Shown piece after piece: positions 10,532 through 23,740 of a stretch of 64,000 bases of DNA. Both the position numbers and the translations under genes were made by a program. The first letter of the stretch is position 1. Each line of letters opens with the position of its first letter. Source of the stretch: Escherichia coli (GTDB lineage: Bacteria > Pseudomonadota > Gammaproteobacteria > Enterobacterales > Enterobacteriaceae). The stretch is from assembly GCF_003334405.1 (NCBI RefSeq), contig NZ_QOWM01000004.1. One strand, given 5' to 3'. The notes beneath the pieces were generated by a model. The model was given only the letters and a program-made list of their open reading frames with translations, did not search any database and had not been told where the DNA came from.

Positions 10532-10557
10532 TAAAAAAGCCCGCTTTTAATGCGGGC
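10532..10557 (-). terminator. Candidate intrinsic terminator read on minus strand (distal end of aspC transcript)
   Basis: Hairpin gcccgc-ttttaat-gcgggc preceded on plus strand by an A-run, which is a T-run on the minus strand. Confidence 0.4.
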
Positions 10558-10587
10558 CTGGATTTCTGGCAAAGTGCGCTTTGTTTA

Positions 10588-10687
10588 TGCCGGATGCGGC
10601 ACGAGCGCCTTATCCGGCCTACAAAATCGTGCAAATTCAAAATATTGCAGGGGACGCGTAGGCCTGATAAGCGTAGCGCATCAGGCA
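10588..10687. repeat. REP pair (BIME-like) in gloC-aspC intergenic region
   Basis: tgccggatgcggcacgagcgccttatccggcctac and inverted copy gtaggcctgataagcgtagcgcatcaggca; classic REP consensus. Confidence 0.85.
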
Positions 10688-13210: not shown

Positions 13211-13356
13211 TATTTATTACCCTCATGGTTTTTTTATGACACCTGCCACTGCCGTCAATAAGTTCTGTCAATAAAAATTTACGGAACTATTGATGAGAGT
13301 TTGGTGTCTTTATGTGTCTGCAGGCATCTTTCCATTCAAACTAACGTTTCGCTACC

Positions 13357-19503: not shown

Positions 19504-20272
19504 TTACCCCTGTTTTCTCAGGCGAGTTTCAGATTCACCACGTTGCATCACCCGTTGCAACACCTCCGCTTCCAGCTCCGCTAATCGCACCGACCCTAAT
19601 CGACGCGGACGGGGGATATCCACTGTCAAATCCAGACCAATTTTTCCCTCTTCAATTAACAGCACCCGGTCAGCCATCGCTACCGCTTCGCTCACATCAT
19701 GCGTCACCAACAGTACGGTAAAGCCGTGCTCCTGCCAAAGTGACACAATCAAATCCTGCATCTCGAGTCGCGTTAAGGCGTCCAGCGCCCCGAGCGGTTC
19801 ATCAAGCAACAATAATCCCGGTCGATGAATCAACGCTCTTGCCAGCGCCACTCGCTGTTTCTGCCCGCCAGAAAGTGCGGCAGGCCATTCCCCTGCGCGA
19901 TTCTCCAGTCCTACCGCAGCCAACGCTCGACGTGCGGCATCGCGCCACTGGCCTTTAAGGCCTAACCCAACGTTATCAATCACCGATTTCCACGGTAGCA
20001 GACGCGCATCCTGAAACATCATTCGCGTGTCTTCCTGAATTTCAGCCAGCGGTGTGGTGCCCGCTAACACATCGCCTGCGGTTGGCGTTTCCAGACCTGC
20101 CAGCAGGCGCAGCAGGGTACTTTTGCCACCACCGCTGCGGCCCACCACCGCCACAAACTGACCTGCCGGAATATGTAAATCCAGTTGGTTCAGGACGATA
20201 TTTTTCCGCGTAATGTTTGCTTACTGCATTGAGCAACAATGGCGTGCCCTGGTTCAGACGAGCAGTATTCAT
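19504..20272 (-). pseudogene. ssuB: Aliphatic sulfonate ABC transporter ATPase SsuB, disrupted by +1 frameshift
   Basis: ATG at 20270-20272 gives [23 protein letters not shown], then low-complexity sequence; the Walker-A-containing body (…[16 protein letters not shown]… to stop at 19504) is in another frame; frames are rejoined by deleting one T from the T5 run at 20201-20205. Confidence 0.85.
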
Positions 20273-21060
20273 ACCGTGGCCTCCTTCAAATGATAAGCCG
20301 GGTTCCAGCGCAACCAGAGGCGCTCTAACAGCTGCGCGCTGACGTCAGCCAGTTTGCCGAGCAGGGCGTAAAGAATAATAGCGACTACCACCACGTCCGT
20401 TTGCAAAAACTCCCGCGCATTCATCGCCAGATAACCAATGCCTGAATTGGCAGAAATGGTTTCGGCAACAATCAGCGTCAGCCACATCAGGCCCAACGCA
20501 AAACGCACGCCGACCATAATTGAGGGCAGGGCACCAGGCAGGATCACATGGATAAACAGCGGTATGCCGGATAATCCATAGCTACGCGCCATCTCCACCA
20601 ACCCGCGATCGATATTACGGATGCCATGCCAGGTGTTGATATAAATGGGGAATAGCGTACCGAGCGCCACCAGAAAGATTTTTGCGGATTCATCAATGCC
20701 AAACCACAAAATCACCAGCGGGATCAGCGCCAGATGCGGCACGTTGCGCAACATCTGAATTGAGGTATCCAGCAGCCGTTCTCCCCAGCGAGATAGCCCG
20801 CTAATCAGTCCCAAAATCAACCCCAGCGATCCGCCAATTGAAAAGCCAATCAGCGCCCGCCAGGAGCTGATCGCCAGATGCTGCCACAGTTCGCCGCTGG
20901 CGGAGAGCGTCCAGAACGCCGTCACCACTCCTTCCGGTGAAGGCAAAATACGCGTCGACAGCCAGCCAACCGAGGAGGCCAGTTGCCACACCGCCACGAT
21001 GCCCACCGGTAAAAACCAGGGGGCAACGCGCAATAACCACTTCTTCACTGGCGTTGCCAT
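20269..21060 (-). CDS. ssuC: Aliphatic sulfonate ABC transporter permease
   Basis: 263-aa product from ATG 21058-21060 ([10 protein letters not shown]...); multi-pass permease; stop overlaps ssuB start. Confidence 0.93.
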
Positions 21061-21070
21061 TATTTCTTCC

Positions 21071-22216
21071 TTAGCTTTGCGCGACTTTACGGGGGATAAA
21101 ATCATTCGCCACCGCTTCGCCTTGCGGATTCAGCGGCTGCGGCTGGGGAATTTCCGGGATGGCGACATCCAGAAGCGGGAACAGCAACTCGCCAACCCGA
21201 TACGCTTCTTCCAGATGCGGATAGCCCGAAAGCACAAAACTGTCGATGCCAAGCGCGGCATATTCGTTGATTCGCGCAGCGACCGTAGGACCATCGCCCA
21301 CCAGCGCCGTCCCGGCACCGCCGCGCACTAAGCCAACGCCCGCCCATAAATTGGGGCTGATCTCCAGATTGTCGCGCTTGCCGTTATGTAACGCCGCCAT
21401 TCGCTGTTGCCCTACGGAATCCGTCCGGGCGAATGCGGCCTGTGCTTTGGCGATAGTTTCATCATCAAGATGCGAGATTAACCGCTCGGCGGCCTGCCAC
21501 GCTTCGTCGTTAGTTTCACGAACAATCACATGCAGACGAATACCGAAACGAATTTTGCGTCCATGCGCGGCAGCTTTCGCCCGCACTTGTTCGATTTTCT
21601 CTTTAACCAGTTCCGGCGGTTCGCCCCAGGTGAGGTAGAGATCAACCTGTTCTGCCGCCAGCTCCTGGGCGACATCTGACGATCCGCCAAAGTAAAGTGG
21701 CGGATACGGCTGTTGAATCGCCGGGAAGAGCAGTTTTGCTCCGCGCACATGAATATGTTTACCGTTGAAATCGACGGTTTCTCTCTGCAATAAACGCCGC
21801 CAGACCTGGGTAAATTCCGCCGAGGCTTCGTAGCGCTCGCTATGATCAAGGAACACTCCGTCGCCTGCCAGCTCTTGTGGATCGCTGCCTGTGACCAGGT
21901 TAAACAACGCACGTCCATTTGAGAGACGGTCAAGCGTGGCGGCCTGGCGGGCGGCAACGGTAGGTGAGGTTACGCTGGGACGCAGGGCGACAAGAAACTT
22001 CAGCCGCTGCGTCACCGGGATCATCGATGCGGCAACCAGCCACGCATCTTCGCAGGAGCGCCCCGTTGGAATTAGCACACCGGTATAGCCAAGACGATCC
22101 GCCGCTTGCGCAATTTGTTGCAGATAACCGTGATCAACCGGGCGTGAACCTTCTTCCGTTCCCAGATAATGCCCGTCACCGTGGGTCGGTAAAAACCAGA
22201 ACATATTCAGACTCAT
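21071..22216 (-). CDS. ssuD: FMNH2-dependent alkanesulfonate monooxygenase
   Basis: 381-aa ORF recognised as SsuD ([19 protein letters not shown]...). Confidence 0.96.
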
Positions 22217-23172
22217 AATTGTTTTCCTTCCAGTTGAGTGGGCTGCCAGATGCGCTGGCGAATATCGACTTTTTTCGGCACCAGACGATTTTCATAAAAC
22301 AGATCTGCCGTTTGCTGCTGTAAGGCGGCAACCTCGGCGTTAACCGGTTTGATGGTGGTAGGAGGGCGATGATCTAAGTAAGAGGCAATCACCGGTGCCG
22401 GTAAGCCCATCGTTTTTGCCAGTAAAGCGATGCTTTGCTCGCGCTGGCTGCGGGTTAACGCATCGGCCTCACTAAAGGTTGCCAGTACGCCCTGAATAAA
22501 AGCGCCGTTTTTTTCTGCATAGGGACGAGCTGCCAGATAAAACGATCCAGTTTGATTGAGATCGGTGCCGTCTTTCAGCACCCGCACGCCGCCCTGTAAT
22601 AATGCAGCAGAGTAGTAGGGATCCCAGATAGCCCAGGCGTCAACGTTACCTTGCTGGAACGCGGCGCGGGCATCAGCGGGCGTCAGGTAAGTGGGTTGGA
22701 TATCGGTAAACTTAAGTCCGGCCTGACGCAGTGCACGCAGTAAAAGGTTGTGTGAACTGGAACCTTTCTGAAAGGCAACTTTGTGACCTTTAAGATCGGC
22801 TACGGTTTTGATCGGGCTGTTTTCTGCCACCAGAATCACTTCGGCTTTGGGCTTCGGTGGCTCGACGCCCACGTACACCAAATCAGCCCCGGCAGCCTGG
22901 GCAAAGATTGGCGGAATATCCCCGGTACTGCCGAGATCAATACTGCCAACGTTTAACGCTTCCAACATTTGCGGACCCGCGGGGAACTCCACCCAGGAGA
23001 TTTTTGATTCCGGATAGCGTTTTTCCAGTAACTGGTGGCTTTTTGCCAGCACCATACCAATACTGCCTTTCTGATAGCCTATACGTAACGCTTCAGGCGA
23101 GGATTCTGCAGCAACCGCAAAAGTAGAGACGCTAAGCAATCCCGCCAGCGCCAGTTTAATGATGTTACGCAT
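22213..23172 (-). CDS. ssuA: Aliphatic sulfonate ABC transporter periplasmic binding protein
   Basis: 319-aa product from ATG 23170-23172 ([22 protein letters not shown]...); stop overlaps ssuD start. Confidence 0.93.
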
Positions 23173-23740
23173 GGGCATTACCTCGCAGAGACAGAAGGTC
23201 AGGAACCTGAACATCGCGGCGGTGCAATGCCTGCCAGAAAGTTTCTAGCGCGGTATCAAGACGGGTTTGCAGATTTGGCGTGAACTGGGGTCTGTGATGG
23301 TAATCAATTACTTGTGAGTCATCGGCAAACACGCCGTGCAGGATCTCCTGAGCTTTCAGTGCGCTTAAAACTGGTTTAAGGGCATAATCGACCGCCAGCA
23401 GATGGGCCACGGTACCGCCCGTCGCCAGCGGTAGCACCACTTTGCCTTGCAAAGCGCGTTCTGGCAGCAGGTCGAGCAGGGTTTTCAACGCACCGGAATA
23501 GGCGGCTTTATACACAGGCGTGGCGACAATCAGCCCATCGGCCTGTTGCAGCTGTTCGGTGAAGGTCTTGAGTGCCGGACTATCGAAACGAGCATAAAGT
23601 AGATCTTCCGGGGCGAAGTTTTGCAGATTCCAGTGATAAACCTCTACATCCAGGCCATTTAGTTTTTCCCGCGCATATTCCAGCAAGGAGCTGGAGCGAG
23701 AAGGAAAGCGAGGACTACCCGCCAGGGTGATGACACGCAT
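23165..23740 (-). CDS. ssuE: NADPH-dependent FMN reductase
   Basis: 191-aa ORF recognised as SsuE; 8-nt overlap with ssuA start. Confidence 0.95.
   Translation of the reverse strand: MRVITLAGSPRFPSRSSSLLEYAREKLNGLDVEVYHWNLQNFAPEDLLYARFDSPALKTFTEQLQQADGLIVATPVYKAAYSGALKTLLDLLPERALQGKVVLPLATGGTVAHLLAVDYALKPVLSALKAQEILHGVFADDSQVIDYHHRPQFTPNLQTRLDTALETFWQALHRRDVQVPDLLSLRGNAHA

Follow-up and report, generated by a model that had tools for sequence, protein, structure and literature searches.

A single-base gain in a short homopolymer probably made ssuB a pseudogene in one lineage of Escherichia coli

Introduction

The ssuB gene on this E. coli contig does not read through: a surplus base in a short homopolymer divides it into two open reading frames (ORFs), and the question is whether that base belongs to the organism or to its sequencing. 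The window (the whole stretch of DNA that was analysed, 64,000 nucleotides in length) carries genes of the E. coli chromosome in the order mukFEB ... pepN, ssuBCDAE, elfADCG ... hya, appC. SsuB serves as the nucleotide-binding component of SsuABC (PMC3839906; PMC6906117), and the ssu operon is switched on only in cells starved of sulfate or cysteine (PMC6906117). A preliminary description, made from the sequence alone, had proposed that ssuB is split by a one-base gain within an otherwise intact operon and had left two explanations standing, a loss-of-function allele or an artefact. The observation is a single-base difference from the reference state and not a statistical pattern, and the real issue is mutation versus sequencing error.

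Results and Discussion

The ssuB frame breaks after codon 23

Direct reading of the window places the ATG start of ssuB at 20270-20272 on the minus strand. The coding strand then runs through CAT TAC GCG GAA AAA TAT CGT CCT, with five A at 20201-20205, where the wild-type gene, as found in MG1655 and EH09-18-41, has an A4 run (GCG GAA AAT ATC, codons 22-25). The features of the locus, all on the minus strand, are as follows.

19504..20272, minus strand: ssuB, entire, read as a pseudogene; 769 nt compared with 768 (99.9% match, with a single gap, to K-12 and about 1,500 other genomes)
20201..20205, minus strand: A5 homopolymer with the surplus base, T5 on the plus strand (direct reading and base-by-base comparison with EH09-18-41 and MG1655)
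20042..20272, minus strand: 5' fragment ORF of 76 aa, opening with 23 native SsuB residues, A-loop Tyr21 among them, followed by 53 out-of-frame residues (ORF list)
19504..20154, minus strand: 3' fragment ORF of 216 aa, from a GTG start (native Val40) to the normal ssuB stop (ORF list)

Beyond its native residues the 76-aa ORF reads KYRPEPTGF... up to a stop, and the 216-aa fragment starts four residues ahead of Walker A (GRSGGGKST), with the Q-loop, LSGGQ signature, Walker B, D-loop and H-loop also read off its translation. The ORF layout of the preliminary description, from the ATG through the KYRPEPTGF... frame to the GTG at 20154 and the Walker A motif, could thus be read in the sequence in every element, and the T5 run is indeed one base longer than in K-12 and EH09-18-41. 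Its claim that removal of one base restores a continuous ORF was likewise borne out: the repaired translation is the 255-aa SsuB of K-12 and scores 497.6 bits on NCBIfam NF008420 (aliphatic sulfonates ABC transporter ATP-binding protein, the SsuB equivalog; cut-off 395 bits) over profile positions 2-255. On the same profile the 216-aa fragment alone reaches 426.8 bits, above the cut-off, at positions 41-255, and the match of the 76-aa ORF ends at residue 24 (positions 2-25). The 216-aa fragment also matches PF00005; neither product, however, holds the A-loop aromatic together with Walker A to H-loop in one chain, as Tyr21 and strands beta1-beta2 are either on the 5' fragment or lost, and never accompany Walker A. 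No uninterrupted frame encodes a complete nucleotide-binding domain, the ssuB frame being broken after codon 23, and the locus as it stands is therefore classed as an ssuB pseudogene and not as a functional SsuB member. The 76-aa frameshift peptide had no exact match in the protein collection, likely since gene callers drop ORFs that overlap the 216-aa ORF.

The break is confined to the last gene of ssuEADCB, which overlaps ssuC in an ATGA read directly in the window, as befits a last gene coupled to ssuC; its flanks equal those of annotated K-12. The remaining genes are these.

20269..21060, minus strand: ssuC (permease), intact, its stop overlapping the ssuB start in ATGA (no DNA difference from K-12 and EH09-18-41, both of which annotate it as ssuC)
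21071..22216, minus strand: ssuD (FMNH2-dependent alkanesulfonate monooxygenase), intact (ORF list and comparison with K-12 and EH09-18-41)
22213..23172, minus strand: ssuA (periplasmic binding protein), intact (comparison with K-12 and EH09-18-41)
23165..23740, minus strand: ssuE (NADPH-dependent FMN reductase), intact (ORF list and comparison with K-12 and EH09-18-41)

Across these four genes (20269-23740) there are zero differences from K-12, and the operon is otherwise intact, as had been proposed. The ORF list stretches ssuC to 278 aa (20269-21105) and ssuA to 333 aa (22213-23214), against 263 and 319 aa in the K-12 annotation; the longer forms simply reflect the first-start rule and are no real difference. 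The natural point of comparison is K-12 ssuB (b0933), which encodes the ATP-binding subunit of SsuABC at the same locus between pepN and elfA, in the same operon order, and the K-12 operon DNA equals that of the window save for one inserted base. The differences are the surplus A in codons 23-24 of the window gene and the lack of any single polypeptide with both A-loop and Walker A.

The A5 allele is absent from complete genomes

Over the full 64 kb, the window differs from MG1655 by 13 substitutions and two indels (the ssuB base and a T7/T8 difference at 13229), and from EH09-18-41 (NZ_CP063503.1), the closest complete genome among the matches found, by 8 substitutions and one indel, which is the ssuB base. 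In both references the A4 run lies within an annotated, uninterrupted 255-codon ssuB. The window holds 805 homopolymer runs of at least four bases, 233 of which have five or more; the 232 other runs of five or more bases and the 572 four-base runs are of the same length as in EH09-18-41. The second indel against MG1655 falls in a run at 13229-13235 (T7 in the window and in EH09-18-41, T8 in MG1655), which sits in the 5' UTR of ompF, 19-25 nt before its start codon, and is an A-run on the ompF strand. Judged by the alignments, it looks like a natural length polymorphism and not an error, because the complete genome EH09-18-41 has T7 too.

The distribution of the A5 allele was then set against that of the wild-type run. 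A 79-nt query over the site matched the region in 5,418 of 5,426 complete RefSeq E. coli genomes, and the best among the matches listed was 78/79, i.e., without the surplus base. One record fell in the 99%+ identity band; it must be a partial-coverage match, because 80% or more of the query is covered in only 5,417 of the 5,418 matches and because a 45-mer of the A5 allele matched nothing. This 45-mer, in which the run is centred so that each 28-nt megablast seed must cross it, gave zero matches in the 5,426 complete RefSeq E. coli genomes, and a corresponding A3 45-mer, which served as a test of the hotspot idea discussed below, gave zero matches in the complete RefSeq E. coli genomes as well. 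The preliminary description would have been overturned by a reference ssuB that itself carries five T with another start; among complete RefSeq genomes no A5 was found. The 24-mer specific for the A5 allele (TTACGCGGAAAAATATCGTCCTGA) occurred as an exact match on no contig of the metagenome collection, where the A4 23-mer control was found on 46 contigs. In the protein collection, intact 255-aa SsuB was present on at least 1,000 contigs versus 23 contigs for the truncated 216-aa call.

Three assemblies share A5, which favors a genuine mutation

The identical A5 run was found in two NCBI drafts, GCA_024592625.1 (JANJGP010000001.1, 443 kb) and GCA_024592615.1 (JANJGO010000024.1, 64 kb), each a record separate from that of the window. 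The former differs from the window by 0 indels and 2 substitutions over 20.6 kb and the latter by one 2-bp indel outside ssuB over 15.9 kb, and A5 is common to three non-identical, near-identical assemblies including the window. All differences among the three sit at window positions 10537-10605, in the gloC-aspC intergenic region: in GCA_024592615.1 the A6 run of the gloC terminator hairpin is altered by 2 bp, and GCA_024592625.1 has substitutions at 10601 and 10605 within a REP-like palindrome. These are probably repeat-associated variation or local assembly ambiguity. Adjacent accession numbers make it probable that the two drafts share a study and a pipeline; a literature search for JANJGP, JANJGO, GCA_024592625 and GCA_024592615 returned no paper.

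From these comparisons, we put the probability at roughly four in five that the surplus base reflects a true and recent insertion of 1 bp (A4 to A5) that has made ssuB a pseudogene in one phylogroup-A lineage of E. coli. This reading is favored because three assemblies have one otherwise unique indel without other homopolymer noise, and the rest of the operon, identical to K-12, is undegraded, which is what one would expect around a pseudogene of very recent origin. The preliminary choice between loss-of-function allele and artefact was correctly framed, and the evidence tilts toward the allele.

The alternative that the strain is truly A4, and that a homopolymer miscall was carried through a common pipeline, is unlikely. 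Long-read and flow-based platforms classically err by adding one base to a homopolymer, A5 occurs in none of the 5,426 complete genomes and on no metagenome contig, and the supporting drafts, whose consecutive accessions make one laboratory and pipeline probable, could conceivably share a systematic or reference-guided error. There is even a precedent at the site, as a long-read NCTC assembly (GCA_900450035.1; UGEQ01000001.1) has this ssuB run at an erroneous length, A3. That assembly, however, has 6 indels in 20 kb, the A3 and five further 1-base indels, with ssuD, ssuC and a fimbrial gene fragmented, a pattern that reads as the signature of uncorrected homopolymer errors, whereas the sibling drafts are essentially indel-free over 16-21 kb. 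Three different assemblies agree on A5, and the run is short, in a window where all other runs of five or more bases and all four-base runs agree with the nearest genome. A real insertion therefore remains the preferred reading of this evidence.

Other ssuB lesions, and whether the run is a hotspot

Retrieved contigs among the 23 that carry the 216-aa fragment were surveyed at the DNA level for the lesions behind it. In other lineages, nonsense codons were found at K19* (AAA>TAA), L13* (TTG>TAG) and Q29* (CAA>TAA), and one contig has a verified IS1 insertion in ssuB after about codon 17; several further contigs of the survey are defective as assembled (N gaps, a poly-A scar, a low-coverage error). 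The nonsense codons and the IS1 insertion are independent of A5 and sit in other public E. coli assemblies and metagenome contigs. Like the A5 insertion, these other natural nulls hit the first ~30 codons, and gene callers emit from them the same GTG-start fragment of 216 aa; they differ from it in kind, being nonsense codons, IS1 or plain assembly defects, and in lineage. The poly-A scar belongs to GCA_002111485.1 (E. coli SHECO002), where TTGCTCA at ssuB codons 13-15 is replaced by a ten-A run (CCATTGAAAAAAAAAATGCAG); the deposited 216-aa protein OSM93182.1 stems from this scar, which looks like an assembly or gap-filling artefact. Sporadic ssuB decay is not unusual in E. coli assemblies, because unrelated lesions (the three nonsense codons and IS1) are found in assemblies other than those with A5.

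This scatter of lesions bears on a second alternative, quite improbable in our view, in which the A-run is a mutational hotspot or a reversible switch, or in which loss of ssuB was positively selected in the lineage. In its favor, both A5 (window lineage) and A3 (NCTC assembly) occur in one run, and public assemblies hold several unrelated inactivating lesions (K19*, L13*, Q29*, IS1). Against it, a tract of 4-5 bases is far shorter than known contingency repeats, A3 and A5 are both absent from the 5,426 complete genomes, and the sole A3 case is in an assembly full of other frameshifts; intact protein on at least 1,000 contigs versus 23 truncated fits sporadic neutral decay better than selection. 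A more specific version holds that the A4 tract is a weak hotspot whose gains and losses are occasionally selected or reversible, with gut-adapted E. coli lineages switching off a costly SsuABC while the operon stays ready for reversion; we consider it slightly less probable still, and under it the A5 of the window and the A3 of the NCTC assembly may be two outcomes of one process. A phase-variable contingency locus was rejected on the tract length (4-5 nt), the absence of A3 and A5 from complete genomes and the restriction of A5 to one lineage. The insertion has its closest counterparts in frameshift pseudogenes made by slipped-strand mispairing in homopolymers, in which, as here, one base is gained, the gene shows no other decay and the phylogenetic spread is narrow; there is no notable difference from these, and at 4 to 5 bases the run is too short for a contingency locus.

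Very improbable, finally, is a real insertion with SsuB function kept, whether by +1 ribosomal frameshifting, by transcriptional slippage at A5 or through an active 216-aa ATPase: the fragment does have all catalytic motifs from Walker A to H-loop, an equivalog score above the cut-off and a weak AGG about 9 nt upstream of its GTG, but the frameshift is conserved in no other genome whereas programmed sites are conserved, GCG GAA AAA UAU CGU is without stop, rare codon or slippery heptamer, and the fragment is without residues 1-39, among them Tyr21 and two beta strands that align, and are conserved, in MalK and further ABC ATPases of solved structure. Five A are well below the run length that gives efficient RNA polymerase slippage. 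Programmed recoding, of the +1 type of prfB or the -1 type of dnaX, failed the test of conservation (A5 in 0 of 5,426 genomes; metagenome contigs with 46 A4 and 0 A5) and was further rejected for having no stimulator, no fitting X XXY YYZ heptamer and a run of only 5 nt. Rescue as a split protein was rejected on sequence and structural grounds.

Predicted consequences for sulfonate uptake

If the insertion is genuine, the simplest account of its origin would be slipped-strand mispairing (replication slippage) in the A4 run at codons 23-24. Ribosomes coupled from ssuC would then translate 23 native codons followed by 53 out-of-frame codons, giving a 76-aa nonsense peptide. Because the zero-frame stop is reached 110 nt past the internal GTG, termination-reinitiation at that GTG is not available. 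An independent start at the GTG would produce SsuB without residues 1-39, which include strands beta1-beta2, Tyr21 of the A-loop and the first part of the strand running into Walker A. The alignment of SsuB with MalK and other solved ABC ATPases starts at about residue 14 and pairs SsuB Tyr21 with MalK Trp13, the adenine-stacking A-loop residue of the MalK structures. Because the A-loop, beta1-beta2 and the start of the Walker A strand are missing, we infer that the 216-aa product should fail to fold or to bind ATP properly and would be non-functional. SsuABC would be left without an ATPase, though SsuE, SsuD, SsuA and SsuC are still encoded.

Hybrid Tau/Ssu transporters, in work by Eichhorn et al. 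from 2000, reportedly give no growth, and TauB should therefore not substitute for SsuB. The predicted outcome is loss of SsuABC-dependent alkanesulfonate uptake, with the substrates of TauABC spared: the lineage would not grow on SsuABC-dependent alkanesulfonates as sole sulfur source, and its use of taurine and sulfate would be unaffected. A polar effect is not expected, because ssuB is last in its operon and pepN is convergent. Since the operon is on only under sulfate or cysteine starvation, loss of ssuB is probably neutral in the gut, which would also account for the scattered, unrelated ssuB nulls described above.

In all likelihood a well-characterised gene has here become an ordinary frameshift pseudogene, recently and in a single lineage, and this matters little past the annotation, metabolic modelling and phenotyping of that strain. 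In the window, ssuB should be annotated as a pseudogene, all the more as gene callers give a misleading 216-aa “SsuB” in such cases, and the A5 site is a handy marker of the lineage. If the mutation is real, this lineage should fail to grow on MOPS, HEPES or ethanesulfonate as sole sulfur source.
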